Assembly: GCF_003334255.1 (NCBI RefSeq)
Contig: NZ_QOWU01000048.1
DNA: 43,440 nucleotides
Source of the DNA: Escherichia coli
GTDB taxonomy: Bacteria > Pseudomonadota > Gammaproteobacteria > Enterobacterales > Enterobacteriaceae
Direction: 5' to 3' (one strand)
In this document: one piece after another, positions 1-40,509 of the stretch
Layout: each line of letters starts with the position of its first letter
How positions within the stretch are numbered: the first letter of the stretch is position 1
Program-made: the position numbers and the translations under genes
The notes under the pieces: generated by a model
Database searches by the model: none
Seen by the model: only the letters and a program-made list of their open reading frames with translations
What the model was told of the DNA's origin: nothing

Positions 1-50
1 AGCTGATAGAAACAGAAGCCACTGGAGCACCTCAAAAACACCATCATACA

Positions 51-1361
51 CTAAATCAGTAAGTTGGCAGCATCACCTCCCTGTTTAAAATCATAATTTG
101 GTTGTTCTGTTCTTGAGTTATTAAGTAGAGTTCTTATCAGTGTTTGCCAAGCATGATTGATAAATTTATTTTCTGATTCTTTAAAATATCGTCTGATTAA
201 AGCACATAAATCTTCGACACTTTTCTGACGAGCGCTAGCTGCCCAACGGCCCCCTTCGGTTTGCACCATTGAACGTTGTACACTGTCTCCTAACTGAGCG
301 ATAAATTTCTGTTCATCGTCAAGTTGCATGTTTTCATTTATGATTAATTCATACAAAGCAAGAAAAACAGCTTGATAGTAACGAGGACATTCTTGAGATG
401 AAGATGCATTGCCCAGAATGTGTGATCTAAAGTTCAAATTATTTGCATCAAATAATTTTTGAATCATCTCATAAACGAAGAGGTAATTATTGACAATTTT
501 ATCTGCACCATTTGTCTGAATGTAATTCTCTAATTGAGTTCGTGTATGGATTGCATGACTCGTCGAACCTTCACCGTAAAATGTATCGAGCGATGTTGAT
601 CCTGATGTTGGCTTATCATCTAAAAATATATAGCCCAAGATATTTGCAACTAACTCTTCATCGTCAGAGTCTCTAATGCTAGGCCTACTAATGATATGAT
701 TTCTAATATAGAAATGATTGTCTATATTTATTCCATAATCGAGTCCATCATTGCAAATTGATATGTTATGTATTTTATTCAGTCCCATTATATCGCTATG
801 TGTAGTATCTCCTCTTATAATTGTCGATATTTTCCTTACTAACTCTGAAAAATTACTAACGCACCCCGCACTTCGTAGTTCTTGTTTTGATAAAATTTTA
901 CCATTGGAATTTATGCGTCGAAACACTTCGTCAATGTGGTCCTCTGTTGAAGAGTATTCAGATATAGCAAATCTATAGCGAGCAATTAATGTAGAACTTT
1001 CGCGGGATAGCACTGGCTCTTTTTGTTGAAGTTTACCACTGTCTTTTAGTTGTTTTGTTAATGCAATGGCATCTAAATTAAAGTATTTACCATTTAATGA
1101 AAATCGCTGCTCAATAAAACTCATTAAAGCTTCTAGTCTTTGCATTCCATCAAGGATTTCTCTTTTGTTGTCAATGGAAACAAACAATAGCAAAGGGATA
1201 GGGTATTGCTGAGTCATTGATGAAATCAGTGCTGTTTTCTCTTCGAGGGACCATACTAATTTTCTTTGGTATCTTCGATTTATAATTAATTTATCATCCA
1301 GATACCACTCGTATAATTCTTCTGCTGTCTTGGAGTCAATATCTAAGTTTTCATTAGCCAT
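51..1361 (-). CDS. DUF262 (ParB/Srx-like NTPase fold, GmrSD N-terminal-type) domain protein, 436 aa
   Basis: N-terminal 'RRYQRKLVW' and 'DGMQRLEAL' match the DUF262 signature (DGQQR-type motif). ATG start at 1361. Sits in an AT-rich block (1-1645) that contrasts with the GC-rich pem/rep backbone. No recognisable C-terminal HNH/DUF1524 motif seen. Confidence 0.6.
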   Translation of the reverse strand: MANENLDIDSKTAEELYEWYLDDKLIINRRYQRKLVWSLEEKTALISSMTQQYPIPLLLFVSIDNKREILDGMQRLEALMSFIEQRFSLNGKYFNLDAIALTKQLKDSGKLQQKEPVLSRESSTLIARYRFAISEYSSTEDHIDEVFRRINSNGKILSKQELRSAGCVSNFSELVRKISTIIRGDTTHSDIMGLNKIHNISICNDGLDYGINIDNHFYIRNHIISRPSIRDSDDEELVANILGYIFLDDKPTSGSTSLDTFYGEGSTSHAIHTRTQLENYIQTNGADKIVNNYLFVYEMIQKLFDANNLNFRSHILGNASSSQECPRYYQAVFLALYELIINENMQLDDEQKFIAQLGDSVQRSMVQTEGGRWAASARQKSVEDLCALIRRYFKESENKFINHAWQTLIRTLLNNSRTEQPNYDFKQGGDAANLLI

Positions 1362-1645
1362 TAGATGTATCTCGAGTATTTAGTTAAGAAACTGATAGGT
1401 CAGTATTTGCATCAATGTTCATTGAATTTGTATCCGAAGTCAATCTGATGTAGGAACTTCAAAACTGCGCAAAACACGCAAATACGCACAAGAAAGTAGG
1501 GCTGCGCTTGGAATTCGGAAAATAAACCACATCAAAACTACTTTTTAGCCAAATAACGTTTGGGAATCACCAGAATGGTGGGACAACAGCGGTTTTAGTG
1601 CCCTAAATCGTACGTTTTCATCCAGTTGCCCCTCAAACCCCATGT

Positions 1646-1978
1646 TCAAGTCAGAATAGTGGACAGGCGGCCAAGAACTTCGTTCATGATAGTCTCCGGA
1701 ACCCGTTCGAGTCGTTTTCCGCCCCGTGCTTTCATATCAATTGTCCGGGGTTGATCGCAACGTACAACACCTGTGGTACGTATGCCAACACCATCCAACG
1801 ACACCGCAAAGCCGGCAGTGCGGGCAAAATTGCCTCCGCTGGTTACGGGCACAACAACAGGCAGGCGGGTCACGCGATTAAAGGCCGCCGGTGTGACAAT
1901 CAGCACCGGCCGCGTTCCCTGCTGCTCATGACCTGCGGTAGGATCAAGCGAGACAAGCCAGATTTCCCCTCTTTCCAT
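1646..1978 (-). CDS. pemK: PemK/Kid toxin (endoribonuclease), 110 aa
   Basis: Translation from the internal ATG (MERGEIWLVSLDPTAGHEQQGTRPVLIVTPAAFN...) is essentially identical to R100/R1 PemK/Kid as I remember it. The ORF-track start at 2110 is a TTG over-extension. Confidence 0.9.
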   Translation of the reverse strand: MERGEIWLVSLDPTAGHEQQGTRPVLIVTPAAFNRVTRLPVVVPVTSGGNFARTAGFAVSLDGVGIRTTGVVRCDQPRTIDMKARGGKRLERVPETIMNEVLGRLSTILT

Positions 1979-1979
1979 G

Positions 1980-2237
1980 TCAGATTTCCTCCTGACCAGT
2001 CGCCGGTGCATCCAGCCATTCTCGTTCTTCAGCTGATATTTCAGCATTCGGATCACACTGTGCCAGTAGCTCAGCCAGTGAATATTGCGGGCGTCTGTAC
2101 GGCTCAACAATCAGCCGGCCATTATCAATGACCATGCCAACTTCATTATCTGTGCCCAGAGACAGCGCATTCAGCAGTGCCGGTGGGACGGTCAGCATAA
2201 CTGAGCCGCCAACCCTCTTCAGTCGGGTGGTATGCAT
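1980..2237 (-). CDS. pemI: PemI/Kis antitoxin, 85 aa
   Basis: MHTTRLKRVGGSVMLTVPPALLNAL... matches PemI/Kis. Lies immediately upstream of pemK with the typical 1-2 nt stop/start junction. Confidence 0.9.
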   Translation of the reverse strand: MHTTRLKRVGGSVMLTVPPALLNALSLGTDNEVGMVIDNGRLIVEPYRRPQYSLAELLAQCDPNAEISAEEREWLDAPATGQEEI

Positions 2238-2329
2238 TCTTCACCTCCATAAAAGTTATATTTAAATATAACATCCACTAAAAAAACACACCAGGCTTTA
2301 ACGCACAATGTTTAATAAAAATATAACTT

Positions 2330-2983
2330 TCAACCAAACAGTAAACCCAGCGTGGTTGCTTCCATATGCAGCAATACCGGCAGCAGCAGGCCACCACTTC
2401 TGATCCTGGCCACTGATGTAATCAACCCCACCAGGAACAGTTCTGCCAGTGTCAGCAGGTTCTGATACTGGCTGTGCGCGGCGACGAACAACAACGACGT
2501 TATCAGCGCCCCCAGCCACATCGTCCAGCAGTACCGTGAACGGAAGACGTTCAGCATAATCCCCCGGAACAGCGTTTCCTCATTCAACGGGGCAAGGATA
2601 AAGATGGTCAGCAACGTCAGGATCACGTCAGGTATGGACTTATCGGCAAAAAGTTTCGTCATAAATGGCTCAGCAGGCAGAGCCAGCGCCTTACCGAGCA
2701 GAAATACACCGACATACACCACGGCCATCGCACCGACCAGCCACGGTACGCCAACGTTGCGCAGCTGACCAACGACCGGTAGCGGAGCTATCCAACGGCG
2801 GTATACCAGGAAAACACACAGCAGGTACATCAGAACAGTACCATGACTGAAGAACAAATAGTTTTTTCCTGATCCATAAAGCAGAACGGCCTGCTCCATG
2901 ACAAATCTGGCTCCCCAACTAATGCCCCATGCAGCCAGCATAACCAGCATAAACTGCAGATATTGATTACGTGTTTGAATCAT
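2330..2983 (-). CDS. CPBP-family intramembrane metalloprotease (CAAX protease/Abi-like), 217 aa
   Basis: Multi-pass hydrophobic protein with the CPBP motifs 'EETLFRG' (EExxxR) and 'FVAAHS' (FxxxH). ATG at 2983. Confidence 0.65.
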   Translation of the reverse strand: MIQTRNQYLQFMLVMLAAWGISWGARFVMEQAVLLYGSGKNYLFFSHGTVLMYLLCVFLVYRRWIAPLPVVGQLRNVGVPWLVGAMAVVYVGVFLLGKALALPAEPFMTKLFADKSIPDVILTLLTIFILAPLNEETLFRGIMLNVFRSRYCWTMWLGALITSLLFVAAHSQYQNLLTLAELFLVGLITSVARIRSGGLLLPVLLHMEATTLGLLFG

Positions 2984-3599
2984 TGCATCGCCTGTAAATT
3001 TTTAACTTGTCCTATTTTTGTCATTACCACGTATATACACATGTATAACAATTCAGATATCGTTACCAGGATATGCCGCATCAGCGGCATGGAAGGCGGC
3101 ACTCTGTTGTTTCATATGATACAGGAGTAAAACCGCCGAAGCCCGGCGTAAGCCGGTACTGATTGATAGATTTCACCTTACCCATCCCCAGCCCTGCCAG
3201 ACCATACCCGCTTTCAGCCATGAGAGAGCTTCTGTGCGCGGTCGGAGTGGTCCCGACGAGGGTTTACCCGAAGTCGGGGCGTATCTCCGCGTTAGCGGGC
3301 CGTGAGGGCCGCTTACGAGCGTGTACTGAGAACTTCCAGCGAGAAGACTGACAGCGATGAAGATGTAGTTACAACATTCATAATTAAAAGCGACTCTGTT
3401 CCGGCCCTTTGGGCCGGGGCGGGGCCGCTTTTCAGTTATGAGGGAGGGGCTTTGTGGTTTCGGTTCTGCGCTGGACCGGGGTTTTTCTGGAGGTTGTTTT
3501 TGTGTGTTGTAACTAAAGTGGCTCCGGTCGGGGCCCGCCGCTTGCGGTGGGAGGTGCATATCTGTCTGTCCACAGGACAGGCAGTGAATAGGTTTTCTT

Positions 3600-3920
3600 T
3601 TTAAATGAATGTAATTAAGTAGTTTAAAGGAGATATAAACAGGTGTTTAAAAGATACATTGCACCCTGTAAGACTGGCGGCTGGCGCTTTATGACATGAA
3701 CGGTTGTAACCTTATGGGGAAGTCCCTTGCAGTTAAATGTGGATAAGCAAAATTCCCCGTCGCTGAGGCGTATTTTGTATTAAAAACAGGGGGAATCGGA
3801 TGCTCCAGAAGGTGGATGATGAGATTGTTTTTTGCATGCGACGCTGTTTTTTTGTGCACCGGCGGGCTTCAGGCGTGCGGATGCCTCCGGCGCAGGCCGG
3901 ATTATTCTGAGGAGATCACT
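3600..3920. other. RepFIIA vegetative origin region (oriR) downstream of repA1
   Basis: AT-rich block directly 3' of repA1 containing a DnaA box (TGTGGATAA, complement of TTATCCACA) at about 3749-3757. Position matches the known IncFII replicon layout. Confidence 0.5.
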
Positions 3921-3921
3921 T

Positions 3922-4779
3922 TCAGGGAGAAGCTGTGGCCAGCCGGCTGTAATTGCGGTTACGTGACAGAATCATGCGCTCCTTCACACGACGCTCCACT
4001 TCGCGTTTTACCGCCTCACCATTAGCAGTGAAGCGTCCTTCCGAGATTTCACGCGTCAGCTGCCGTTTCACCAGGGTGACGATATCCTGACGTTCTCTGT
4101 TCGCATCACGACGCGCACGGGCACGTTTTATTCCACGGGACTTAAGCTCTGTCTGGTAACTGCGGAAACGCTCACGCACAAAACGCCAGGCTTTCGCTAT
4201 CAGCTCATCCATACCCAGGGTATCCAGCCCCTGCTTTTTGCGCTGTTTGTTTTCCCATTCAACACGACTGCGGCGCGCAGCTGCCACTGCATCCTCAGAC
4301 ACATCAAGGGCAGCAAACAGAGCCAGTGTGAACGTGATGTCGGTCGGAATGTAGCACCCGATAAGCGGGTCATATTCCGTCTGGTAGGTAATCAGTCCCA
4401 GCTCTGACAGGAACGTCAGGGCCCGGGTGGCACGGGTGATGGAGAGTTTTCCTGCACCGGACTCTGTCGCCAGTCCGCACTCAATGGCCAGTGTGGTGAT
4501 GGAACACTGGACGCGGTTGGCCAGCGGGTCATAGTGGAAACACAGCCCCTGCAGCAGCGCATCAATAGCCCGTCGACGCAGCACCGGTGGCATGCGCCGA
4601 CGCAGACCACGGGAACGGGCATGCGCCACATGAATGGCGAAATCAAAACGGGAGGTGAAGCCCACCGCCTTTTCCATCAGTTTTTCGCAGAACTTCAGCG
4701 TTCCGGCACCTTCACGGGGAGTGAACACCGGATTCGGGTTCTTTACCTGGCGGTAATACGTTTGGTGAAGATCAGTCAC
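3922..4779 (-). CDS. repA1: RepA1 replication initiator (IncFII/RepFIIA), 285 aa, GTG start
   Basis: Protein (V/M)[36 protein letters not shown]... matches R100/R1 RepA1 over its full length. GTG start at 4779..4777 is preceded by AGGA and overlapped by the tap stop codon. ORF-track start at 4791 is an over-extension. Confidence 0.9.
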
Positions 4780-4846
4780 ACCATCCTGCACTTACAATGC
4801 GCAGAAGGAGCGAGCACAGAAAGAAGTCTTGAACTTTTCCGGGCAT
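4772..4846 (-). CDS. tap: tap (repA6) leader peptide, 24 aa, translationally coupled to repA1
   Basis: Minus-strand translation from the ATG at 4846: [24 protein letters not shown], which matches the R1/R100 Tap peptide as I recall it. Its TGA lies just 3' of the repA1 GTG. Confidence 0.75.
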
Positions 4847-4869
4847 ATAACTATACTCCCCGCATAGCT

Positions 4870-4956
4870 GAATTGTTGGCTATACGGTTTAAGTGGGCCC
4901 CGGTAATCTTTTCGTACTCGCCAAAGTTGAAGAAGATTATCGGGGTTTTTGCTTTT
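4870..4956 (+). ncRNA. copA: CopA antisense RNA (copy-number control), approximate bounds
   Basis: Lies on the strand opposite the repA leader, between copB and tap. Imperfect long hairpin (CCCCGGTAATCTT...AAGATTATCGGGG) followed by TTTTTGCTTTT at about 4898-4956, as expected for the CopA terminator stem-loop. 5' end not determined. Confidence 0.5.
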
Positions 4957-5070
4957 CTGGCTCCTGTAAATCCACATCAGAACCAGTTCCTTGCCACCTT
5001 ACGGCGTGGCCAGCCACAAAATTCCTTAAACGATCAGTAATCTAGCATGCTACGCCACAAAGTAAAGTCT

Positions 5071-5331
5071 TTACTTTAGTATATCCAGTCTCTGCAGTTC
5101 ATCTTTGATGATTTTCTCAACGAACTGAGCCTGTGTTATCCCCTCTCTCTCGCAGTACTCAACCATGAGATCTTTCAGAGGATTTTTGACAAAAACTTTT
5201 ATCTCTTTGTGTGTAAGACGTTTTCTTGCAACAGCGGCCATTTGTTTCTCAGAGTCAGTCATAGGCTTACCTCTGCGCACAAACCGCTTTTGACTCAATG
5301 AGGAAGTCACTGCATTTTCTGTCTGCGACAT
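5071..5331 (-). CDS. repA2: RepA2/CopB transcriptional repressor of repA, 86 aa
   Basis: [39 protein letters not shown]... matches CopB. ATG at 5331 with a GAGGAGG RBS upstream. Confidence 0.9.
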
Positions 5332-5494
5332 CTCGCCTCCTCAATACTCAAACAGGGATCGTTTCGCAGAGGATACTACAGTTTTTTGAAATCAGCGACT
5401 TGAGAATTGTGACGAAGATCTGTGTTGGCGCACAAATCAACGGGGATTACTGTCGTTTAATGTGATTTAAACTGTGAAATAGTATGGTTTTCAG

Positions 5495-5577
5495 TTATGG
5501 AAACGCCGGGAGCGGGGAAAACTTGCTTTTTCCCGTTTCCGGGGTTGGACAACTGAGCAACGCGAAGGCGTCAGCTA
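5495..5577. repeat. Copy 1 of an ~80 bp hairpin-containing repeat (second copy at about 17475-17552)
   Basis: Shared blocks 'GGAAACGCCGGG' and 'CCGGGGTTGGACAAC.GAGCAA.GCGA.GGCGTCAG' flank a copy-specific hairpin. Lies between the DUF2726-like gene and repA2. Confidence 0.5.
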
Positions 5578-6161
5578 CGATGTTCCGGGGACTGCTGATC
5601 AGCCCCTGTTGTATTCAGCCATTCTCCGGTCATCTGCAGCAGTTTTCTGGCATCGTGGCTTCTGAGCAACGGAATACCAGCCTGCCTCAGAACCTCTTCC
5701 AGAAAAATATCCCGGCGTCTGCGTTCCGGTCGTAAATGTCTGGCATCATCCAGCTCTACTGCTGCAACAATACTGAACGAAAGCCGCTCAACGATAACCA
5801 CATCAACATGCCACTGAGACACCATCCTGAATAACTGCCACCACTGGCGTGATCGTGGCCGGATATTCCCGTTCAGCTGGACGATATCCGCGACCCGTAC
5901 CTGCGGACACAGATACCACCGCTTCATATCCACAATTCTGAACAGTCCTTTCATAAAACTGACTTCCCTTTCTGTCAGCAGCGTCTTCTGACGTTGCCAG
6001 TATTCACCGCCGGACAGTATTCGCTCTGCATCACCGGTCCGTATACCTGCCGCATGCAACTGCATCAGCAAAGGAGAATGCTGATTTACACTTCTGAGGA
6101 TAATCCGGATAAGTAACGCTGCAATAATCAGAACAATGAGAATAAAAATAATCAGCTTCAT
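5571..6161 (-). CDS. N-terminally membrane-anchored protein, probably DUF2726-type, 196 aa
   Basis: Hydrophobic N-terminus (MKLIIFILIVLIIAALLIRIIL) followed by a soluble domain. Occupies the position and has the size of the conserved IncF backbone gene next to the hha-like gene. Domain assignment is from memory, not motif-proven. Confidence 0.5.
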   Translation of the reverse strand: MKLIIFILIVLIIAALLIRIILRSVNQHSPLLMQLHAAGIRTGDAERILSGGEYWQRQKTLLTEREVSFMKGLFRIVDMKRWYLCPQVRVADIVQLNGNIRPRSRQWWQLFRMVSQWHVDVVIVERLSFSIVAAVELDDARHLRPERRRRDIFLEEVLRQAGIPLLRSHDARKLLQMTGEWLNTTGADQQSPEHRS

Positions 6162-6198
6162 TGTTTATCTGCTCCTGGTAATTAATTATGCTGAATTA

Positions 6199-6408
6199 TT
6201 ACCTTACATATTTCCATATCTCTTTTGGTATCCTGTCATATAACTTTCCGGTGATTAATTCCGCTAACCGGTGGTCTGCTGCTGAATTAAATGATTCACG
6301 TTCACTGGTTGATAAACTGTCTCTGTTTTTATGAATAATTTTTTCCAGCGTATTGACTGATGAACATCGCCGTAACTGATACAGCCATTCCTGTTTTGTT
6401 TTTGCCAT
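6199..6408 (-). CDS. Hha/YmoA-family expression modulator (RmoA-like), 69 aa
   Basis: ...[22 protein letters not shown]...[30 protein letters not shown] closely parallels Hha ([23 protein letters not shown]...[22 protein letters not shown]). Confidence 0.85.
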   Translation of the reverse strand: [69 protein letters not shown]

Positions 6409-6453
6409 TTTTATTCCCGCTGAGAACAGATGAATGATAAGATTGCCAGCGCT

Positions 6454-6915
6454 TTATTTACGGTGTCTCCATATCCAGGGGGGAACCGGATCAGCATCTG
6501 ACCAGAGCCCACGTTTTTGTTGTCTGGCTTCGTTCTGAAAGACAGGCAGCGCGGGATCTGTGTTGTACTGCTCATATACCCAGGCAGCCCCGGCCCGGAC
6601 CATAAACTGATTAACATTCATTCCGTCTGGTGCATAAACCTGCCCGAGAATACGACCATAACGATCTCGCTGAAAATATGTGACGGTAACCGTTTTTCCT
6701 GCAACCAGTGATTTCATCATGTCTGTCGACCACCGGCCATAATCCTGTTTCTTTTCCGGTGCATCAATATTTACCAGCCTGATCCGCACCGCCTTCCGTG
6801 AGTCCATGACCTCGATGGTATCACCGTCCAGTACACGAACAACCCGTCCATGAATATCTGCACACAATACCGGCCATGAAAAGATAAATAATACCAGTGG
6901 AATATATTTCCTCAT
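6454..6915 (-). CDS. Secreted thermonuclease (staphylococcal nuclease/SNase-like), about 153 aa
   Basis: Signal-peptide-like N-terminus (MRKYIPLVLFIFSWPVLCA) followed by SNase-like blocks ('DGDT', 'RIRLVNIDAPE', 'YGR', 'GLWSD'). Start trimmed to the ATG at 6915, which has a GGAGA RBS. ORF-track start at 6975 is an over-extension. Confidence 0.8.
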   Translation of the reverse strand: MRKYIPLVLFIFSWPVLCADIHGRVVRVLDGDTIEVMDSRKAVRIRLVNIDAPEKKQDYGRWSTDMMKSLVAGKTVTVTYFQRDRYGRILGQVYAPDGMNVNQFMVRAGAAWVYEQYNTDPALPVFQNEARQQKRGLWSDADPVPPWIWRHRK

Positions 6916-6993
6916 GTTATTCTCCATATCAGATAAATAGCACCTGTATTTCATGCATCCTGAATATTGCAGCACACACTGAATAACACCTTA

Positions 6994-7015
6994 TTTTGTG
7001 AAATTAATCACAAAA
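6994..7015. promoter_or_regulatory. CRP-like palindrome TGTGA-N6-TCACA upstream of the nuclease gene
   Basis: Sequence TTTTGTGAAATTAATCACAAAA has perfect TGTGA/TCACA half-sites with a 6-nt spacer, about 90 bp upstream of the nuclease ATG. Confidence 0.35.
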
Positions 7016-7472
7016 TATAAAATCACGACTTAATACGGAAAAAACTCTGTGCTACTCAGAACTGTCCGGTCATACTTCCCGACCGGATATTAAAAAAAGC
7101 AAATCTCATGCATTATTCAGCCTTCTGAATCCCTGGAGTAATGAAGGCTGCTTTTTCGTTACACCCTTCCCCGGCAGCGCCGGTGGCAGTGTTCAGCCCT
7201 TTTTCGGGCAAACTGCTGCCAGTCTGTCCGGGGAGCAGACTGCGCAGCCCGTAGCCATGCCTCAGCGGCTCCCGGCCAGTCCCCCCTGACTTCCAGCCGG
7301 ACAGCCCGGCGTCCGACCTGCCGGTAGCGCCATACCCCGGAGTTTTGCGAATCACGCCCTGTTCCGTTCATTTTCCTTCCCCCTTTAATCCAGGCCGGTG
7401 AATGTGTTATAAATTTTTATAACCTTCTTCTGCCGGGTATGGAAGAAGGTTTCAGAGAAGCCTTATTTTTCC

Positions 7473-7504
7473 GCCTCCTTTAGTGTGAAGGAGGCTTTTT
7501 TATT
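7473..7504 (+). terminator. Intrinsic-terminator-like hairpin (GCCTCCTT-N8-AGGAGGC followed by TTTTTTATT) at the finO 3' end
   Basis: Perfect 7-8 bp GC-rich stem followed by a T-run on the plus strand. Overlaps the finO stop codon. May terminate plus-strand read-through or act bidirectionally. Confidence 0.4.
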
Positions 7505-8060
7505 GTTCATCAAGCACGGCCTGAAGTTCTGCCTTTATCCGGTTCTGGCGGCGGATTTTATCCAGACGCTCTGCCGCATACACTTCTTCCTCCTGAGAAA
7601 TATGCTCCGTCACATACCCTTCCGTGTCATACCGGCAGGCACCGGCTTTCATGGCACACAGATAGCTTTCTGAACGGGTGATGGCCTTCAGCGCCCTGCG
7701 CAGTTTTTTATGCGAGAGCGGGATATTCCGCTGCGCCACGTCTTCCAGTAACACGTCCCGGATACCGCAGGCCAGAAGTCGGGGTGTGTCACCGTCAAAT
7801 AATCCCGGCCACCAGGGTTTCAGGGTGTTCACGGCCTCATCCAGCGAGGGCAGGTTCAGATAAATGGACAGCGCCTGTCTGGCCTGCGCTTTTTTTGCTG
7901 TCAGCTCTGCTTCCCGGGCAGCCTTCTCCGCCAGTTTCTGCTTTTTCACCTTCCATTTTGGTGGCGTGGTGACATTGATGATGGTTTTCCGGCTCCGGGT
8001 CGGTGTTTCCCCTTCCGTTTTCCGTTTCAGTGTCAGTACCGGTCGTTTCTGCTCTGTCAT
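7500..8060 (-). CDS. finO: FinO fertility-inhibition RNA chaperone, 186 aa (intact)
   Basis: [25 protein letters not shown]... with a Lys/Arg-rich N-terminus matches FinO. Full length, with no IS interruption. Confidence 0.9.
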
Positions 8061-8162
8061 GATTGCCCTGACCTTTGTGAAAATATGTCCTCCAGGTCGT
8101 TGAAACTACTCACTATGATATTAAGCTGACCTCAACGACCTCTGACATATTAATACCGACAA

Positions 8163-9023
8163 TTAAAGATGTTTTTTAAACCATTGCGTCTGTACTGCCG
8201 CCACACGTTCAAAAAACGCGCCTTCATAAATATCATAATGGCATGCGTCAGCTTCCTCGTATAATTCCTTAGTACCAGAAGCAACAGCATCATATAAGGC
8301 TTTTCCCTGTTCTGGTGGATTAACACTATCCTGGCCGGCAATAACAATCAAAACTGGGCACTGTACTTTGGCTGCGCTCTCTGCCGGTTTATATTGCAAC
8401 GTCTCCATAACCGTAAGGAAAGGTATTTTTATATCCATTTCAGGATACTGACCTTTTACCTTCTCGAAGAATACCTTTGATTCATTATCACTCAGTACCC
8501 GGGTAACCCCCACAAACATCTCTTTCCCGGTGTTTTTCTTCTTCTCTGCCATTTTATTCAGCGTGGACAGAAAAGACGCTCTCTCCGATTCATTCATCTC
8601 TCCGGTAACCAGAACATCACCGTCAGCAAAAGCCAGCTGGCTGACAATACATTTTACGCGTTGGTCCTGCGCAGCTGCACTGAAGACATGCCCCCCTCCC
8701 AGCGATGTTCCCCATAACCCAATACGCTGATTATCAATACATTCCTGCTTTTCTGCCCAATTGATAACTGAAATAATATCTTCGGTCTGCATTGCAGGAA
8801 CCAGACGCCCTCGTTCTCCATCACTCTCACCGAATCCTCGATAATCAAAAGTAATCGTTGCGAATCCTGCTTCTGTGAAGGCATTCGCAAAGCAAGGGAG
8901 CAGAACATTCCTGATACCGCAAAACCCATGGCATAAGATAATCAAAGGATGTTTTATATTTCCTTCAGGAACACGAAATGTCAGGGCAATACCTTCAGAG
9001 AGTTTGTGATCCGTAATTTTCAT
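8163..9023 (-). CDS. Alpha/beta-hydrolase-fold protein (esterase/dienelactone-hydrolase-like), 286 aa
   Basis: Nucleophile elbow 'GLWGTSLGGG' (G-x-S-x-G), 'HGFCG' oxyanion region, and C-terminal Asp/His candidates. Sits between traX and finO, where F-like plasmids carry variable cargo. Confidence 0.75.
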   Translation of the reverse strand: MKITDHKLSEGIALTFRVPEGNIKHPLIILCHGFCGIRNVLLPCFANAFTEAGFATITFDYRGFGESDGERGRLVPAMQTEDIISVINWAEKQECIDNQRIGLWGTSLGGGHVFSAAAQDQRVKCIVSQLAFADGDVLVTGEMNESERASFLSTLNKMAEKKKNTGKEMFVGVTRVLSDNESKVFFEKVKGQYPEMDIKIPFLTVMETLQYKPAESAAKVQCPVLIVIAGQDSVNPPEQGKALYDAVASGTKELYEEADACHYDIYEGAFFERVAAVQTQWFKKHL

Positions 9024-9081
9024 AAATATCCTGTGTTATGTTGTTTATTAATAATCAGAATCAGCGTCAGTATCATACCAG

Positions 9082-9828
9082 TCACAACGCCAGAACGCCC
9101 AGCACAGCCAGATGACAGGCGTAGAATACCGGGAAAAAATCCCCGGGCCAGAAACGGGGTAATGATTTTCCTGCACACGACACCAGACCAACGGTCAGCA
9201 CCGTCATTACAAGACCGGCCACCGCCGCTGCATCACTGGAGGCAAGGTTAAGTGCCGGAATAACGGCCAGCAGGCATGCAAGCAGCGCCAGACGTTCCGC
9301 TCTGTCTTCCGCCCGGTACAGTCGGTAACTGACCGCCAGCATCAGCAGCCCGGCAATGCCGTAACTGGTGCCGGACAAAGGCCCCCACAGGGCCATCAGA
9401 AGAATGGCCGCTGCTGTACGCCACCCACTGCGCGTTTCACACCACGTCAGCACCTGTGCCGCCACTGCAAAGGCAAACAGGATATTCCCCTCATACCAGG
9501 GAAAGCCGGCCAGATAATATGCGAACTGGGCAATAATTCCCCATCCCCACAGCCGGTTAATGGCCGGTTGCCGGATATGCGCATGACGGGACAGATTCAG
9601 CCCCCACACCAGGGCAAACAGCGGAAAGGCTCCTCGCCCGGCCAGAAACATCCATTCCTGCTTCAGCTGGAATATCAGATTGATGTGGTCCAGTACCATC
9701 AGCACCAGCGCCACCGTTTTGATGATATCCCGCTGTCCGGGTGACCAGACCAGAAACGACTGCAACCAGGTATCGGTCCGTGCAGCCAGTGAATCGTTAC
9801 GTGTCGTGTTCGTGTTATCCGTTGTCAT
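9082..9828 (-). CDS. traX: TraX F-pilin N-acetylase, 248 aa
   Basis: MTTDNTNTTRNDSLAARTDTWLQSFLVWSPGQRD... polytopic membrane protein matching F TraX. Start trimmed to the ATG at 9828, just 3' of the traI stop. ORF-track start at 10293 overlaps traI and is rejected. Confidence 0.85.
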   Translation of the reverse strand: MTTDNTNTTRNDSLAARTDTWLQSFLVWSPGQRDIIKTVALVLMVLDHINLIFQLKQEWMFLAGRGAFPLFALVWGLNLSRHAHIRQPAINRLWGWGIIAQFAYYLAGFPWYEGNILFAFAVAAQVLTWCETRSGWRTAAAILLMALWGPLSGTSYGIAGLLMLAVSYRLYRAEDRAERLALLACLLAVIPALNLASSDAAAVAGLVMTVLTVGLVSCAGKSLPRFWPGDFFPVFYACHLAVLGVLAL

Positions 9829-9847
9829 CAGTGTTTGTCTTCCTGTA

Positions 9848-12800
9848 TCAGTCTCCGCCCAGGGTTTTCTCTTTCTGCAGGTCACGAACCATATCCCGCT
9901 CCATCTGCTGCAGACGCTCCTGCAGCAGATTTTCCCGGGCAACCTCCCGGACCGCTTCCCGCTCCCGTTGTGATTCACGCAGCACACTCTCCGGCAGTGC
10001 GGTTTCCCGTTCAGATATGGCAGACCGGTCACGCTCCTGTCCGGCAATATCCCTGACAGCCAGCTCTGTTTTGCCGTCCGGCAGGTCAGGTTTGTTCTCT
10101 GCCATTTTCCTGACAATTTCATCTGCGCGGCGTTCCGTTTCACGGCGGATGGCCTCTTCAGCCTGCCGCTGTGCCAGTACCTCTGCCGTGACCGGTTCGC
10201 CATTTCCGGCACCCGGCTGGACGCTGTTGTCCGGGATATCCCCCCACACGCGGCCACCGGTGATGGCACCGGGATTCCACGGGCGACCTTCACCGGCGAT
10301 TCTTACCACCACACCACTGTCAGGATTATCACGGGCAATCCGGACGCCATCCTGCATATTATCAGCCAGCAGGCTCTCTCCGTTACGGCTGCCCTGCAGG
10401 GCCACGAACTGCGCATCCCCGCTGCCTTTCACCCGTCCTTCACCACTGAATCCCCGCAGCCCGTTTCCGTCATCCGTGGTCAGTGGGTTCAGCCAGATAC
10501 CAGCTGACTTGCCGTTACGGTCAAACGCCGGCAGTGCCACATGCGGCTGCGGATATTTACGTCCCGGTGCAATAAACCGTGCAGGGCTGTCTCCCCCGGC
10601 CAGCCCTGCCTGACGGAGAACGGCACGGCCTGCCGCCACGTCCCGCAGTTCCCGTGCCGTACTGAACAGCCGCTGCGCATTCATGACCTCCCGGTCCGGT
10701 TTCGGCTCCAGCACATCGTGGGCAGTTCCTTTCTGTACGGCATTGTTAATGGCATCCGTCCAGCCCTGACGGTTATCGGTGTACACCTGCACATGCTGCT
10801 TCATACGCGACAGGGCCACGTAGGCTGACTCAAAGCCGGCCATCAGTTTCCGGTTACCTTCCGTGCCTTCAAGCGCGATGGCAAAGGTTTCACTCGCCCC
10901 CTGCGCACCGTGGGCGGTGATGGCATAAGCCAGGTCAATATGTTGCTCTGCCCGCTCCTGGCCGGGGCGAATCACCCGGGTCTGCTGTCCGTCTGACAGC
11001 GTGACACTGTCACCGGAAACCGCTGTCACCGTCCAGACGCTGTTGGCCACATAACCGCGCTCCCGGTCACTCTTCGTGAAGCGCATCCGGTCGCCGGTCC
11101 CCACCCGGATTTTGTCCGGGGTGTACAGTGTGACACCTTCAGCCACCGCCTCCCGGGGCGAAATCAGCCGCGTGTTACCTTCCGCATCCTCCAGGGTTAT
11201 CAGCCCGTCATCCTTGCTGATACCGGCAATCCGGTGATACACACTATCCACCAGGGCAAGGGCATCCGGGTTATTCTCCCAGGTGGAGAGACGACGCAGC
11301 TCCCCGTCACGTATATTCGCTGTGTTCAGGACAGGCACCATGACCTGCTCTTTCCCCAGCTCACCGGCCTTTTCCCGTGCATCATGAATCATGCTGTTCA
11401 GTACGCGCCGGTCCTCATTCAGGTGCGTGACAATCAGCGTCTGCTCCCGTGCTTCCGGTGTCCTGCCGGTATAGTCGCGGACAATGGCTTCATACAGTGT
11501 CATGGGGACATCCGGAAAAGTCTCACCTTTCAGCATCGCCTTCTGCTGCGCTTCTGCCAGTTTCGCTTCCTGGCTGTGACTGAACTCCGTCACGGAGTGC
11601 TCCGGTGCCCATGCGCCCTCCTGACGGGGAACCTGAGACGGTTTCACACTCTCAAGCCCGGACAGTGCCCTTTCCACATCCCGGTTAATCAGGCTGTATA
11701 CCGCCTCCCGCAGTTCCGGCGTCTGACGCACAATCTCCTTCATGATGACCACATCGGCAGCACTGCGCGTCTGCTGGAGACGGAAAGGCTGACCGGGCGC
11801 GATGGCCTGCAGCTGGTCCGTGTCACCACTGGCCACGGCACGACCGCCACCGGCCGCAATCAGGGCGTATGCCCGTGCCATGTCGGTATTGCCCACCATT
11901 GAGCTCTCATCGAGCAGGAACAGCGTGTTGCTGAAATCCGGCGTTTCTCCGCTGCGCTGCTGCAGCTGCGTGTCATGCAGAAAGGACGCCAGCGTCTGTG
12001 CATCCACGCCGGCGCTGCGCATCTCACCGACCGCACGGTGCGTGGGCCCCAGCCCCACAACTCGGGGACGCTCACTCGCCGGCAGCATGTTCACGGCTGA
12101 CATCACCGCCCGGAACTGTGTGGTCTTACCCACCCCGGCATACCCCTGCACCACCGTGAAACGGTCGGACGTTTCCAGTATCATGCGGGTGGCGGCACGC
12201 TGTCCTGATGTCAGTTTCTCCATGAGTTCGCCAGGTACTCTCTCCATCAGCGGCGTGACCGCCTCCTTACCTTCGAGAATATGGCGAAGAATACTTTTTT
12301 CTGCCTCATACGACGCACGGGAAACCAGCAGGCCTGTGCCATAGCCTTTTGCCACATCCACATACAGTAAGTCACCGCGTTTTATCTGCGCATTGATTTC
12401 CCCTCCCAGTTCAGTAAAACCGGTTCCTTCTGCAGCAAACGACTTCGCCTCTGTCAGCAGGTCCACCATGCTGAAGGCCAGGTTTTTACTTTCCAGCACA
12501 GGAAGGGCCAGATGAATGGCCTGCTGTGCCGGCGTGTGCAGCCCGGTTTTCTGCAGACTGATAGCGGTTTCCAGCGATGTCTCACCGGCCCGCGCCTTTA
12601 TCTGCTCAGAAACCACCGTAAAGGAGGGATGGCGGGCAAGTTTTTCCGCAGTACGGGTTTCATCCAGTGAGGAATACAGCCGGACATCACGACCGCTGCG
12701 GGCCAGACCGTTCAGGGTGGCGTTGTCCATTGCCATCTGTGTGACGGAGGCAAACACCGTCGCACTGTCACTGACGGAATGCCCGGGCGTTTCCACCCAG

Positions 12801-15118
12801 CCGTTCTCCAGCTTCAGTGCCGTGAACGGTGAATCAGCCACAGGCAGGGTGGCCGGTTCAGCCCGCCCCGGCACAACAACCGTCATCGCATCTTCACTGA
12901 CGGATGCCACCTGCAGGCGGTCACCGCCGGAGACGCGGAGTCTGGGAATTTTCCCTGTCACCCTCAGTCGCTCGCCGTCTGCCACCGGCATTTTTTCCGG
13001 CCGGAACAGCGACCAGCTGCTGTCCAGGGAGGAAATACGCACCACCTGCGTTTCGCCCTGCGCATCCCGCAGGGTCAGGCTGTGACTCTGCGCCGTCACC
13101 CGGTCGATAACATAGCGGTCATGACTGCGTGTCTCCGGGTTCCACTGCTCCATCACCATCCCCGGTCGGTACATATCCCGCAGATAACGGCTCCGGCTGT
13201 CCAGCCAGACCGGTGACAGGGCGGTCATGGTTACTTCCGGGTGTCCGAGCACGCCCTGTGTTTTCAGCTCACTGCGAATGGCCTGGGTCAGAATGGCCTG
13301 TTCCCGTACCCCGCTGACCTGTGCCACGCTCTCTTCTCCGGCTTTCACGCTGGCCGCAAAATCCCCGGCCAGCCGGGCATAGCGGACATTACGGTCCGGT
13401 TCACTGATGATGGTTGCCGGTCGCTGCTCTCCGCCCTGCCAGCGATATATGTTCACCCCGGCATCCTTCATGGCCATCAGCGCACTGCCTGTACCGGTTC
13501 GCTGCCCGCTGTCGGTTATCAGGACCTGTACGTTATGACGTGCGGCACCGTCCAGCAGGGTTAACGTCTCTTTCAGGGAGAGTTTTTCGCCCTGGTCAAC
13601 GATAACAGTACTGCCCGGCGTGAAGGCCATGCCTTCCAGCAGCTGACGACGTCCGGTTATCAGCTCACCGGACAACCGTTCATCCTGCTTCAGGTTCATC
13701 TGCGAGCGACGGTCAGCAGCGATAATCTGCACCTCCCGCCCCTGCTCCCGGGCCATCATGACCAGTTCAGCCACCCGCTCACGCTGCCCGGCTGCACCGC
13801 CCTGCCCGGACACAATGGCCAGCGACGGACGGTCCTGTGCCAGAACACTGACCGCATCGCTGTAACCAGCCGTCCGGGGGACACTTTTCTCCGGATGTAC
13901 GGTCACCCGGTTCTGTTTCATGATGTCACGACTGAGTGCCCGGACTGACAGCTCATCGAGCACATGAATCCCGGACGTGAACAGCCCCTTCTCACGATCG
14001 AGGGGGATAAGCTTCTCACGGCTGATGGCCTCATCGATACCGGCGCGTGCCCGTTCAATCACACCATTTTCCGGCGGCAGTATGCCGACCGTTCTGGCCA
14101 GCACGTCCGTGTACGTAAACTGCACTTTTCGTTCACTTAATCCGGCAATGGCCTGTGTCACCGCCTGCTGCACATCCGGCCCCTCCTGTGAAACAGCCCC
14201 GGGCGCCTGCGTGCGGGTCTCCGCACGCTGATCCGCCGCGTCACGATATGCCCGGATGTCGAACCCGGTTTCCTTCAGCGTCTGCATCCATTCAGCCATT
14301 CTGACTTCAGGATCGACGTGCTGTTTGGATTTTCGCGTATCCAGTGCCGCCACATCCCGGGATTTCAGCGAGGCATCTTCCCCGACGGCCTCCCGGATTG
14401 CCTGTGAGCGTCCGGAAAAGGCCTCCACCGGTACGCCCGGCATCTCCCACATACCGTGCTTACCCACCACTTCGGTTTCATAGCCCAGCGCCTCAACCTG
14501 CTCTTTCAGTTTTTCCCGGTAGAGCCTGCCAAAGGCAATCTGATTAGCGTACACATTCTCAATGAACCCCGTTTTCCCCACTTTGTCACTGCTCAGTGTC
14601 TTCCATTCGCCGTTATGCTGCGTGACATTAGCCACCACCGCATGCGTGTGTAACTGTGGTTCCTGATCGCGACTGGTGTCGTGGTTAAACAGTGCCATCA
14701 CCAGATTACCGGTCAGCACCGTTTCTGACTGTCCGTCCGTCATCACCCGTGTGGAGGCCAGCGCCTCCACCTGACGAACAGCAAAGTCCACGGCCTGGTT
14801 ATGTGCATCAATCAGGCGCTTATCGCCACCTAACATGGCCATCATGGAGACACTTTTGGGGGCGGAGAAGGTCAGGTCGTAGCCGGGACGATGCCTGTTA
14901 CTGCCATCCTGCATGCGGCTTAGATCCGCTCCATCCGGCAGCCTTCCCTCCAGAAGACGGGTAAAAACATCCTTATCGACACTGCCCTGCAGTCCCAGCT
15001 GTTCAGCCCCCCTGCCGGCCCAGCGTTCTCCCATGCTGCCCAGCACATAGTAATTATCCTTGTCGGTATAATAGTTACCGGCACTTCCGGCCGATCTGAC
15101 CTGCGCAATACTCATCAT
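9848..15118 (-). CDS. traI: TraI relaxase/helicase (DNA helicase I), 1756 aa
   Basis: Full-length colinear match to F TraI ([35 protein letters not shown]... through ...KEKTLGGD), including the N-terminal relaxase region and the 'GYAGVGKTT' Walker A of the helicase. Confidence 0.95.
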   Translation of the reverse strand: MMSIAQVRSAGSAGNYYTDKDNYYVLGSMGERWAGRGAEQLGLQGSVDKDVFTRLLEGRLPDGADLSRMQDGSNRHRPGYDLTFSAPKSVSMMAMLGGDKRLIDAHNQAVDFAVRQVEALASTRVMTDGQSETVLTGNLVMALFNHDTSRDQEPQLHTHAVVANVTQHNGEWKTLSSDKVGKTGFIENVYANQIAFGRLYREKLKEQVEALGYETEVVGKHGMWEMPGVPVEAFSGRSQAIREAVGEDASLKSRDVAALDTRKSKQHVDPEVRMAEWMQTLKETGFDIRAYRDAADQRAETRTQAPGAVSQEGPDVQQAVTQAIAGLSERKVQFTYTDVLARTVGILPPENGVIERARAGIDEAISREKLIPLDREKGLFTSGIHVLDELSVRALSRDIMKQNRVTVHPEKSVPRTAGYSDAVSVLAQDRPSLAIVSGQGGAAGQRERVAELVMMAREQGREVQIIAADRRSQMNLKQDERLSGELITGRRQLLEGMAFTPGSTVIVDQGEKLSLKETLTLLDGAARHNVQVLITDSGQRTGTGSALMAMKDAGVNIYRWQGGEQRPATIISEPDRNVRYARLAGDFAASVKAGEESVAQVSGVREQAILTQAIRSELKTQGVLGHPEVTMTALSPVWLDSRSRYLRDMYRPGMVMEQWNPETRSHDRYVIDRVTAQSHSLTLRDAQGETQVVRISSLDSSWSLFRPEKMPVADGERLRVTGKIPRLRVSGGDRLQVASVSEDAMTVVVPGRAEPATLPVADSPFTALKLENGWVETPGHSVSDSATVFASVTQMAMDNATLNGLARSGRDVRLYSSLDETRTAEKLARHPSFTVVSEQIKARAGETSLETAISLQKTGLHTPAQQAIHLALPVLESKNLAFSMVDLLTEAKSFAAEGTGFTELGGEINAQIKRGDLLYVDVAKGYGTGLLVSRASYEAEKSILRHILEGKEAVTPLMERVPGELMEKLTSGQRAATRMILETSDRFTVVQGYAGVGKTTQFRAVMSAVNMLPASERPRVVGLGPTHRAVGEMRSAGVDAQTLASFLHDTQLQQRSGETPDFSNTLFLLDESSMVGNTDMARAYALIAAGGGRAVASGDTDQLQAIAPGQPFRLQQTRSAADVVIMKEIVRQTPELREAVYSLINRDVERALSGLESVKPSQVPRQEGAWAPEHSVTEFSHSQEAKLAEAQQKAMLKGETFPDVPMTLYEAIVRDYTGRTPEAREQTLIVTHLNEDRRVLNSMIHDAREKAGELGKEQVMVPVLNTANIRDGELRRLSTWENNPDALALVDSVYHRIAGISKDDGLITLEDAEGNTRLISPREAVAEGVTLYTPDKIRVGTGDRMRFTKSDRERGYVANSVWTVTAVSGDSVTLSDGQQTRVIRPGQERAEQHIDLAYAITAHGAQGASETFAIALEGTEGNRKLMAGFESAYVALSRMKQHVQVYTDNRQGWTDAINNAVQKGTAHDVLEPKPDREVMNAQRLFSTARELRDVAAGRAVLRQAGLAGGDSPARFIAPGRKYPQPHVALPAFDRNGKSAGIWLNPLTTDDGNGLRGFSGEGRVKGSGDAQFVALQGSRNGESLLADNMQDGVRIARDNPDSGVVVRIAGEGRPWNPGAITGGRVWGDIPDNSVQPGAGNGEPVTAEVLAQRQAEEAIRRETERRADEIVRKMAENKPDLPDGKTELAVRDIAGQERDRSAISERETALPESVLRESQREREAVREVARENLLQERLQQMERDMVRDLQKEKTLGGD

Positions 15119-17334
15119 CAGAAATCATCTCCCGGCTCAACATCCTCCCCGCGCTCCCGGTGCACATTAATGTTCACCTCTTCACGACGCTGCATCTGCT
15201 GCTGGATGTCCGGATGATTTTCCTGTTGCCATGCCTCATAAGCGGCCATATCCACCACTTCACCGGATTCACTGATCCCGGGTGGCAGTTGCTGTTCCAT
15301 CTCTTCTTCCGGTTTCATTTTCAGCTCCTGCTCGATCCCCCCTGCCGGAACATTCACACCTGAATCTGACTTCTTATCGTTGATGGCAGGAGACACCGGC
15401 TGTTGCGGCTGTTGCGGCTGTTGCGGCTGTTGCGGCTGTTGCGGCTGTTGCGGCTGTTGCGGCTGTTGCGGCTGTTCAGCCTGAGTCACGTCTTCTCCGG
15501 AAACAACCTCCGGGACATCCGGTTCGAAGAGGCTGGCCATCTGACGACCTTCTGCTTCCCTTGCGGCAAGTACGGCACTCAGACGGTTCTCCATTTCCGG
15601 GTTGATGTCACGCGGAATAAACTCCGGAGCGACCTTCGGTCGTGTCTGATATTTCAGAGAGAGTTTTACTGCCGGATACGGTCCGGGCAGGGTGACATAA
15701 CAGGTCAGATCCGGCAGAGACTGAATGTCGGAATAACTGACCAGCGTCTGGCGCTCCATATCCTTACCGGTCGATACCCCGTCACGTACCGGATCAGCAC
15801 CGTAGGAATACTGCTCGCTGGCTTTCAGGTGCTCTTTCTCACCAATCTCACCGGCAGCGAACTCTGCAATCTTATGGCTGGGAGAACGGAAAAAGGCACG
15901 GGTGTTCATGACGTCAAACAGCGTGGCAGCCGCTTTCTCACCGTAGATATCTTCCAGCTGGGCATAGGACTGGATACCAAACACATAACAGCCACCGAAC
16001 TTACGGGCTTCCGGCAGGATCTCCACCAGGTCCGGCAGTTTGTGTAACGTGGGTAGCTCATCACAAAAAAACCACACACGACGGTTACGGTTTTCTCCCA
16101 TTGCCAGCAGACCACGAATGGCAATGGACAGCCACATGGAGATCACCGGCTTCAGGGAGGCATGGGTGTCGGCATTCGACGAGATAAACAGCCAGCCGTT
16201 TTTCTGATCTTCCCGGACACCACGCATCCAGTCACGGATGGTAAAAGACTCACCGTTATGCTCAATCCCCTGCAGGTAACGGATGGCTTTCACGTAGTTG
16301 GTCAGCACAGCACGGATGGAAATCGCCGTTTTCTCAATTTTCTCTTCCACCAGGTTGGCCGCCGGTGAATTACGCAGGAAGGTACGCAGTTTTTCGATTT
16401 TGATGGAAAGCAGTGTGTCCACCAGTTTGCTGTAGCTGCGGTTGGGGTCATTACGCATCAGGTACGCCGCTTCCGCAAAAATGGTACGTCCTGAACCCTG
16501 CCAGAACGGGTCCTCTTTTGTGCCCATCGGGATCAGCGTGTTCGCGGTATTATCAAAATCCGGCTGTGTCAGGCACTCCTTCCACAAATCCCAGGCGGCA
16601 CAGCGGGCATCCAGCGGATTCAGGATTTTATCGATGGAGGGATCATAGTAACTTTTAACAAATTCCCCTGAACGGTCATAAATCACCACCATATCTCCAC
16701 GCTGACGGGCGTAGTTGGCCAGACGACGGATAACTTCCGACTTACCGGCCCCGACCGTGCCGTGCAGACAGAAGTTCTGGATTTCGGAATCCCGGATAAT
16801 CGGCAGGTCGCCAATCCGGATATCGGAGTCCTTGCCGTCTTTTTTCAGCATCCGGGCAACGTCTTTCGGATTGTCTGTCAGCTGACGACCACCTGTGACT
16901 TCATTTTCGCTCTGTTGTTTACCCTGACGCCCCAGAATCCAGGAGACAACAAAGAAGGTGATCAGGCAAATAACCAGTGCCACAACTGTGGCCAGAACGA
17001 ATGCGGACCATAGCTGCTCTCCGCACCAGATCATATATTTATCATGCAGTACCTGAGCAGCGTTCATCCGGAAGGTTTTGCCGTAATACTGGATCTCATA
17101 GACCGGCTGGGACTTGATTAAATCCCGCATGCCTTCCAGCGTGGTACACCACCAGTAAATACAGCCGTTCACAAACGTCTGCCAGCTTATTTTTACCCAT
17201 AAAACCAGACCAACGAGTATCCAGAAAAAAATAAACAGGCAGTAAAGCATGATATTGGCGATCTGGCTGAACATGCGGATACGCATGGACGCAATCTGAC
17301 CGCCCTGGGTCATATCCTTTGCGTTAAAACTCAT
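15118..17334 (-). CDS. traD: TraD type IV coupling protein, 738 aa, with expanded C-terminal QQP repeat
   Basis: [24 protein letters not shown]... matches F TraD. Walker A 'GTVGAGKSE'. C-terminal (QQP)n tract is longer than I remember for F (717 aa). Confidence 0.95.
15401..15472. repeat. Eight perfect tandem copies of a 9-nt unit (TGTTGCGGC) encoding the TraD QQP repeats
   Basis: Directly visible as (ctgttgcgg)x8 in the sequence. In-frame within traD on the minus strand. Confidence 0.9.
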
Positions 17335-17474
17335 GATGATATTCCGAAGAAAAAAAGTCAGTCGGACTGATTATTAATGATGAAAAGATTAATAACCGTT
17401 AAATTCCGGCTTCGCCGGCAACACTTCACGGTCGCACAAAGAATTTGCACAACCGCTCAGTGTTTTCATATTTA

Positions 17475-17580: not shown

Positions 17581-17586
17581 AGATAA

Positions 17587-18318: not shown

Positions 18319-18331
18319 CCAAAATATCCTT

Positions 18332-29057: not shown

Positions 29058-29082
29058 AAAAAATCCTTCAGAATTAGTAGTT

Positions 29083-38904: not shown

Positions 38905-38918
38905 CGTTTTATTTCCTG

Positions 38919-39278: not shown

Positions 39279-39311
39279 ATGATTCCTCTGTTTAATATTG
39301 ATAGATAAAAA

Positions 39312-39539
39312 CTAAAGTTCTTTAAATGTTGACTCGCTCTCTTCGGTCACCTCCCTGAATATTTCTTCGTTATAGAAATCAGGAAATCGTTTCAGATGAT
39401 CTCTGAGACGGATCTGGACTTCTATCGTTTTACTTCTTCCACTACGATCTTTGGCCTTAATAAGTCGGTTATTTGTATCTTCATCGAGATACACCGAGAC
39501 CGTTCTGCTTATACCGCCTCTCGCGTTACGCCTCCTCAC
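39312..39539 (-). CDS. traY: TraY ribbon-helix-helix oriT-binding protein, 75 aa
   Basis: 75 aa, basic, R100-type TraY-like sequence (MRRRNARGGISRTVSVYLDEDTNNRLIKAKDRSGRSKTIEV...). Confidence 0.85.
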   Translation of the reverse strand: MRRRNARGGISRTVSVYLDEDTNNRLIKAKDRSGRSKTIEVQIRLRDHLKRFPDFYNEEIFREVTEESESTFKEL

Positions 39540-39632: not shown

Positions 39633-40319
39633 TTACTTAACGCTATAAAATTCACGAATTATATTTAATAGCGAATCTATTTCCCCTTTATAGATACATG
39701 ACACTCTGAATAAATCAAAGTGTTCAAAAAATTCTTTTATTTTCCGTTTAACTGGTTTAATTCGATCCTCAGATGCTCTGTCTGTAATACCCAATTCTCT
39801 GGCAATTGTTGCATGACCAACACCCAGCATATAAAAAGAGAAAACAAGCAATGTCCCGGGGGAAAGATCATTCCATATCGTTAATTTGTCAGAAGTATTT
39901 GTATTACTTCCACTCTGATTTAACGCAAAAAATGGATAATCAGGAAACGGATTAATTTGCCATAAAACAACAGATTCGTCATTATAAAAAGAAACATTCT
40001 CCATCCTTATCTGATAGATTTCGCCATGAAAATTAAAACGACGACAAAATGCAGAGCCATGTCCAAGAGCCTGGCATTCCAGTTCAAGTGATGAAAGAAA
40101 AATTTCAACCTGCAGACGTATATAACTCTCTCCGGATAAGGGTTTATCTTCTCTGGAAAAGAGTTCAATAAAAGCCCCATTGGCATAAAGGATTTTCCGG
40201 TTTTTGTTACGGACACAAACCGGAACGGGAGAATTTCTGTAGATATTCTGAACGTTAAGGATGTATTTATTTACAGATTGACTGTTAAGTGGCCTTTCTC
40301 TACGATCCAGCGCACACAT
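39633..40319 (-). CDS. traJ: TraJ transcriptional activator of the tra operon, about 228 aa
   Basis: Start trimmed to the ATG at 40319 ([14 protein letters not shown]...), which has a GGAGG RBS at 5-nt spacing. C-terminal helix-turn-helix-like segment '[20 protein letters not shown]'. ORF-track start at 40379 runs into the finP/leader region. Confidence 0.8.
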
Positions 40320-40395
40320 AGGAACCTCCGTTAAGGATTCTATGGACAGTCGATGCAGGGAGGTCTGAACTCCCTGCATCGGCGATTTTCAGTTT
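40320..40395 (+). ncRNA. finP: FinP antisense RNA (approximate), complementary to the traJ leader
   Basis: Plus-strand perfect hairpin CGATGCAGGGAG-gtctgaa-CTCCCTGCATCG at about 40350-40381, followed by GCGATTTTC. Overlies the traJ RBS region on the opposite strand. Ends not mapped. Confidence 0.45.
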
Positions 40396-40509
40396 CAATT
40401 TTTAACGTGGCATTAACCACGTAATTAATATACTAATTATCTGACGTATTGTCATCTTTTTGAATCATAAAAATTCTTATATTTGAACCAACTCAAACTT
40501 CATTTTCAT

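Follow-up and report, generated by a model that had tools for sequence, protein, structure and literature searches.

A complete FinOP fertility-inhibition system, predicted to be functional, on an IncFII-type F-like plasmid of Escherichia coli

Transfer of F-like plasmids is held down by the FinOP fertility-inhibition system, which represses it 100- to 1000-fold (PMC3105414). FinOP has been described as active in R100, R6-5 and R1, with F itself derepressed by an IS3 insertion (PMC7690428), and a survey of F-like plasmids found every member of group A to be finO-positive except F (PMC5102898). Repressed transfer is thus the default state of classical F-like plasmids, with F as the exception. 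Footprinting with F RNA showed that the FinO protein touches the base of the stem of stem-loop II (SLII) and the 3' tail of the antisense RNA FinP, and not the loop (PMC3105414). The loop nevertheless matters, since in another F-like plasmid the exchange of one base in the SLIIc loop was enough to derepress transfer (PMC10470590). Here we compare with these systems a locus whose finO gene and FinP-like element had been noticed in a first-pass annotation made from the DNA letters and open reading frames.

The stretch of DNA analysed (hereafter the window; 43,440 nucleotides of contig NZ_QOWU01000048.1 from the E. coli assembly GCF_003334255.1) covers the half of an IncFII-type F-like plasmid that serves transfer and replication. 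From 18500 to 43440 it matches pKFu019_2, as well as other plasmids typed as conjugative, at 100.0% identity, and positions 1-18500 are 100.0% identical to pH1038-142, although the corresponding segment of the latter spans 22.4 kb as against 18.5 kb in the window, with the differences falling at about 1400-2300 and 6975-7159. The extra sequence of pH1038-142 that is absent from the window includes a copy of ISVsa5 beside pemK and, between the genes for the thermonuclease and the ANR regulator, another stretch for which no genes are listed. The sequence of this near-identical plasmid, one part of which is IncN, was obtained from a transconjugant (PMC4285173). As the match to pKFu019_2 comes in two pieces, a deletion in the window was considered, but no sign of one was seen across the tra region and the first leading-region genes, which are collinear. 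The gene content of the window further includes a DUF262 gene (51-1361), a pemK-like gene, CPBP protease genes and an IncFII repA (3922-4791), and the CopA replication-control RNA is matched above its Rfam gathering score at 4864-4954 on the + strand.

The tra operon runs entirely along the - strand and is intact, every tra and trb ORF being as long as its annotated counterpart in relatives and the tra ORFs agreeing with those of pKFu019_2. Two hypothetical genes (28114-28566 and 28596-29096, - strand) lie between trbC and traU; they are hypothetical in pKFu019_2 too and stand outside the standard F tra set. Rfam matches above the gathering scores were also recovered for the antisense RNAs AS-traI (12193-12269, + strand) and AS-traG (20859-20944, + strand).

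The finO gene lies past traX, where the tra operon ends, and is on the same strand as the operon. The first-pass annotation had described it as full length, with 186 aa at 7500-8060, and this is confirmed by a single ORF with an ATG start at exactly 7500..8060 (- strand), the product of which, the RNA chaperone and FinP stabiliser FinO, contains both expected Pfam domains, namely FinO_N (PF12602, residues 1-62, E 7e-38) and ProQ/FinO (PF04352, residues 73-177, E 8e-26). The uninterrupted combination of these two domains, together with its closeness to the characterised FinO, places the protein in the FinO family. Indeed, it is identical to Swiss-Prot FINO2_ECOLX (WP_000139321.1) and to the FinO of R100 and R6-5, and agrees with the crystallised fragment spanning residues 33-184 (PDB 1DVO) at 150 of 152 residues. 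The identity extends to the DNA, with 2.1 kb around finO being 100% identical to R100 (NC_002134), NR1 and many further plasmids. The translation retains all of K46, K81, R121, K125, R165 and K176, which cross-link to RNA in FinO, as well as the strand-exchange residue W36 (PMC3105414). Given this identity in sequence, the FinO encoded here would be expected to bind SLII, to protect FinP from RNase E and to promote duplex formation. The disruption of finO by IS3 in F, with which this intact gene had been contrasted, is plainly visible in the F record NC_002483, where nucleotides 1-396 of finO terminate at the end of the record and nucleotides 393-561 resume at 1258-1426, the IS3 transposase gene occupying 66-1228 between the two parts.

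Immediately upstream, finO is adjoined by a gene for a 286-aa alpha/beta hydrolase (8163..9023, - strand), which occupies the 'orf286' position of R100 and R6-5. The same gene is annotated in R100 between traX and finO, in the order traX, 286-aa alpha/beta hydrolase, FinO and ANR-family regulator. The hydrolase gene and finO are separated by 102 nt (8061-8162), within which no sigma-70-like site was detected on the - strand; this suggests that the two are probably co-transcribed and that finO is read through from the upstream genes. The gene upstream of finO reportedly raises finO mRNA in R6-5 (van Biesen and Frost 1992, cited in PMC7690428); a literature search on orf286 and finO mRNA levels found no paper. 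At the other end of finO, 5 nt past its stop codon, there is a G+C-rich hairpin of 10 pairs (7473..7495) with a T-run on the + strand; it is terminator-like for that strand and could possibly act as a 3' stabiliser or terminator of the finO mRNA. Just beyond, the Rfam family AS-pc02 is matched above its gathering score at 7079-7262 (+ strand; 229.5 bits), antisense to the ANR-family regulator gene that follows finO. The 286-aa hydrolase itself scores 508.9 bits over its full length (cutoff 400) with NF047920.1, the NCBIfam equivalog model for the UilS family of quorum-quenching N-acyl-homoserine lactonases, a family in which UilS has been characterised in Serratia marcescens only (PMC11633161). 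A putative lactonase gene within a conjugation operon would merit a look.

At the opposite end of the operon is the target of FinOP. The traJ gene (39633..40319, - strand) encodes the 228-aa activator of the tra operon and is the gene repressed by FinOP. The ORF listing gives it as 248 aa, as there is no stop between 40319 and an in-frame ATG in the leader at 40379; this longer ORF (39633-40379) is a mechanical artefact and a trap for automatic annotation, and the start is the ATG at 40319. TraJ is identical to WP_000332484.1 of p74, pLR-45_1 and pST46-1, its exact sequence occurs on >1000 contigs, and it shows weak similarity to the NCBIfam TraJ models, the group being annotated as 'PAS domain-containing protein'. 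The mRNA leader of about 103 nt (40320..40422, - strand) was delimited from the Rfam match, its fold and the alignment with F and R100. The model for the traJ 5' UTR (RF00243) is matched at 40422-40314 (- strand) with 118.3 bits against a gathering score of 50, and a motif scan located a promoter-like site, ATGACA-17 nt-TATATT, with 10 of 12 matches at 40427..40455 (- strand), a placement that agrees with the start of the leader model at 40422. In the predicted fold of the leader, a 5' hairpin is followed by SLIIc and SLIc, the last of which contains the GGAGG ribosome-binding site and the AUG. Downstream of traJ, the first gene of the long TraJ-activated operon, traY (39312..39539, - strand), is annotated in pERL04-3476-2, which is identical to the window over this stretch.

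Antisense to this leader, the first-pass annotation had proposed a perfect FinP-like stem-loop at about 40320-40395 on the opposite strand. The FinP family (RF00107) is indeed matched there, with boundaries only a few bases off, at 40313-40389 (+ strand) and over its entire length (model positions 1-76 of 76; 91.2 bits, gathering score 45, E 4e-17), so that the gene spans the traJ ribosome-binding site and start codon (AUG 40319-40317, - strand). The structure, however, is not one stem-loop, since FinP folds into two. Further, the long stem is real but not strictly perfect, as one of its 14 pairs is a G.U, and the traJ mRNA copy has 12 pairs with the G.U position unpaired. The 79-nt RNA has a predicted energy of -38.6 kcal/mol (z = -6.8), a stability equalled by none of 200 shuffled sequences. 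Along the + strand, the fold resolves into stem-loop I (SLI; 40317-40344), a 4-nt GACA spacer (40345-40348), SLII (40349-40383) with the loop GUCUGAA at 40363-40369, and a 3' tail GAUUUU beginning at 40384; SLII and the T-run that follows it score as an intrinsic terminator. The promoter-like site TTGACT-17 nt-TACGAT (40278..40306, + strand) is situated within the first codons of traJ and ends 6 nt ahead of the modelled 5' end of FinP. It is invariant across 9 related plasmids, and a Dam site (GATC, 40304-40307) overlaps its -10 hexamer; the F sequence shows the same layout.

An alignment of FinP from 15 plasmids, representing 12 distinct alleles, revealed that all 24 base pairs are preserved in every allele, with one compensatory change from G-C to A-U, while the loops vary. 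The lower SLII stem, GUCGAUGCAGG, and the GACA spacer are the same as in the F SLII RNA on which FinO was footprinted, and the spacer and lower stem taken together (GACAGUCGAUGCAGG) match that RNA exactly. The FinP region as a whole is about 80% identical to R100, and neither loop corresponds to the F-type or the R100-type finP allele, SLI and SLII both being different. The allele consequently matched no classical prototype among those compared, namely F and R100, R1 (KY749247) being absent from the collections compared. Given that FinO contacts the stem base and the 3' tail, both of which are conserved here, this allelic difference should not matter for the predicted action of FinO. A literature search on the expression of FinP from pHK01 found no paper.

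Taken together, these features very probably make up a FinOP fertility-inhibition system that is complete and canonical for a classical (group A) F-like plasmid. The first-pass prediction of a functional system with low basal conjugation is therefore upheld at the level of homology, with every sequence-level requirement present. In the textbook mechanism, which is the best-supported reading here, FinP, roughly 77 nt long, would have a promoter of its own within the first part of traJ, and its two stem-loops would pair with the traJ leader, ribosome-binding site and AUG included. FinO, the gene for which is some 32 kb from FinP and ends the tra operon, would bind the base of SLII and the 3' tail of FinP, shield the RNA from RNase E and accelerate its duplexing with the traJ mRNA, and the duplex would block the translation of TraJ. 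In cells lacking TraJ, there would be little activity from the traY promoter and the long operon behind it, and only a small fraction of cells would be transfer-competent. We infer that both FinP and finO are expressed and that basal transfer is low. FinOP repression is never absolute. For a resistance-type IncFII plasmid such as this one, low basal transfer with bursts in new transconjugants would be expected, as in most natural F-like plasmids, and the loss of finO would turn it into a 'superspreader'.

We consider it unlikely that FinOP is present but represses only weakly, whether because little finO is expressed, because of host factors or because the loop variant kisses less strongly, which would allow intermediate or high transfer. 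Low expression could be argued from the lack of a promoter-like site directly upstream of finO, the transcription of which would then need read-through; but finO and the gene upstream of it are base for base those of R100, in which FinOP has been described as active (PMC7690428). Weaker kissing might similarly be suspected since the SLII loop allele GUCUGAA is uncharacterised in the literature found, and a one-base change in the SLIIc loop sufficed to derepress another F-like plasmid (PMC10470590). Against this, all 7 nucleotides of the loop stay unpaired, its match to the cognate target is perfect, with a computed pairing energy of -7.6 kcal/mol, and its presence in about 280 plasmid records indicates that it is not a laboratory derepressed mutant. 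The recovery of a near-identical plasmid as a transconjugant (PMC4285173) would also be compatible with leaky repression. Still less probable is a situation in which intact regulatory genes accompany a transfer apparatus that is dead for other reasons, leaving FinOP with nothing to control. Missense defects are conceivable from the sequence, but no evidence in support was found, the tra and trb ORFs have the same lengths as in relatives, and the region is 100.0% identical to plasmids typed as conjugative. Finally, the view that the traJ leader hairpin is just a terminator of the ordinary kind or a palindrome that arose by chance, as the generic terminator-like score of SLII might suggest, is effectively refuted by the full-length Rfam FinP match (E 4e-17), its correct position and orientation relative to the traJ AUG, the promoter-like site at the right distance and the conservation in place of both stems across 12 alleles. 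The repressive FinOP reading is thus retained in what follows, and as such it concerns a well-known system in its usual state.

The sole mildly new point is the origin of the FinP allele, which is a side note on this system and not a new system. The SLII loop of the window, GTCTGAA (40363-40369, + strand), is the exact reverse complement of TTCAGAC, the loop of its nearest sister alleles (hereafter form B, with that of the window as form A), which are carried by pL37-4, the HvKp-su1 plasmid, pAPEC-O2-R and pEC1515-3. The flanking sequence differs from that of the HvKp-su1 plasmid at 9 positions in 1364 nt, loop excluded, and at this background divergence the probability of three independent substitutions yielding exactly this reverse-complement loop is about 4e-7. 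Five sampled plasmids with form A show 0-4 differing sites, as compared to 2-172 in plasmids with the other form; accordingly, the loop form of the window looks to be derived, by a single inversion event. Recurrent flipping of the loop was considered as another possibility, but a chimeric query combining the form A loop with a flank of the pAPEC-O2-R type returned no record at >=99%, and a single event fits. Either loop form is carried by 1236 PLSDB records, of which about 280 have form A and would make up a derived clade; this split is an estimate, because the hairpin is nearly palindromic and a 35-nt query for one form also aligns with the other, across 31 nt of the opposite strand.

Since FinP and its target are the two strands of one DNA, pairing within a plasmid stays perfect after such a flip. 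The computed energies for SLII loop pairing were -7.6 kcal/mol for the cognate combination, and -0.9 and -0.2 kcal/mol for the two cross-form combinations, in which SLII loop pairing is nearly abolished, with the shared SLI loop contributing a pairing of -5.5 kcal/mol. We tentatively suggest that the allele was born by a one-step inversion of the 7-nt SLII loop, from UUCAGAC to GUCUGAA, that the change may partly insulate this lineage from the FinP of co-resident sister plasmids, and that loop inversion could be a quick route to new fertility-inhibition specificities, a proposal for which the odds are, in our estimate, rather against than in favor. If loop inversion does alter cross-repression, it would offer a simple way for antisense-RNA specificities to diversify. 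A literature search for loop inversion, or for a FinP/traJ allele with the SLII loop GUCUGAA, found no paper.

The allele is also informative regarding the composition of the plasmid. The traJ-FinP-traM stretch is identical to that of pERL04-3476-2, the differences from this plasmid being at 41190 (T vs G) and 41389 (C vs A), both within a transglycosylase gene (gene X / orf169-like, 41170-41817). No PLSDB record is 100% identical over 39500-41200, an interval that includes the SNP at 41190, and the best match reaches 99.9%; the SNP behind this figure had been suspected to lie in FinP, which was rejected upon locating it at 41190 in the transglycosylase gene. To judge from these alignments, the plasmid is a mosaic, with a repA-finO-traX end (1-9100) that is 100% R100-like and traJ, FinP and traM (38900-41200) belonging to another allele group.

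This mosaic character is reflected in the comparison with known systems. With the IncFII plasmids R100, NR1 and R6-5, the window shares finO, the 286-aa hydrolase gene, traX and the downstream ANR-regulator gene at 100% DNA identity over 2.1 kb, and with R100 also the gene order and the IncFII RepA/CopA replicon that follows; it departs from R100 in TraJ (223 aa in R100 and 228 aa here), in the FinP region (about 80% identical) and in both loops. With F, the common features are the architecture, the FinP stems, the GACA spacer, the 3' tail, the -10 element TACGAT with its GATC, and the placement of the traJ ribosome-binding site and AUG. In contrast to F, which is derepressed because its finO is split by IS3 after nt 396, the gene here is intact; F also differs in both FinP loops and in its TraJ allele, and is without the 286-aa gene between traX and finO. 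The closest relatives at FinP, the form B plasmids, have the same TraJ family, stem-loop I, stems, promoter-like site and tail, and differ in the 7-nt SLII loop, which is TTCAGAC in them and GTCTGAA here. The experimental proof that the SLIIc loop controls FinP repression comes from the A51G mutant of the traJ 5' UTR of pHNSHP24, in which a 6-nt SLIIc loop closed by A51 and C56 shrinks from 6 to 4 nt (PMC10470590); this loop would fit the R100-type AGCGAC. Unlike that of the pHNSHP24 mutant, the loop of the window retains all 7 nt, with full complementarity to the FinP of the same plasmid.
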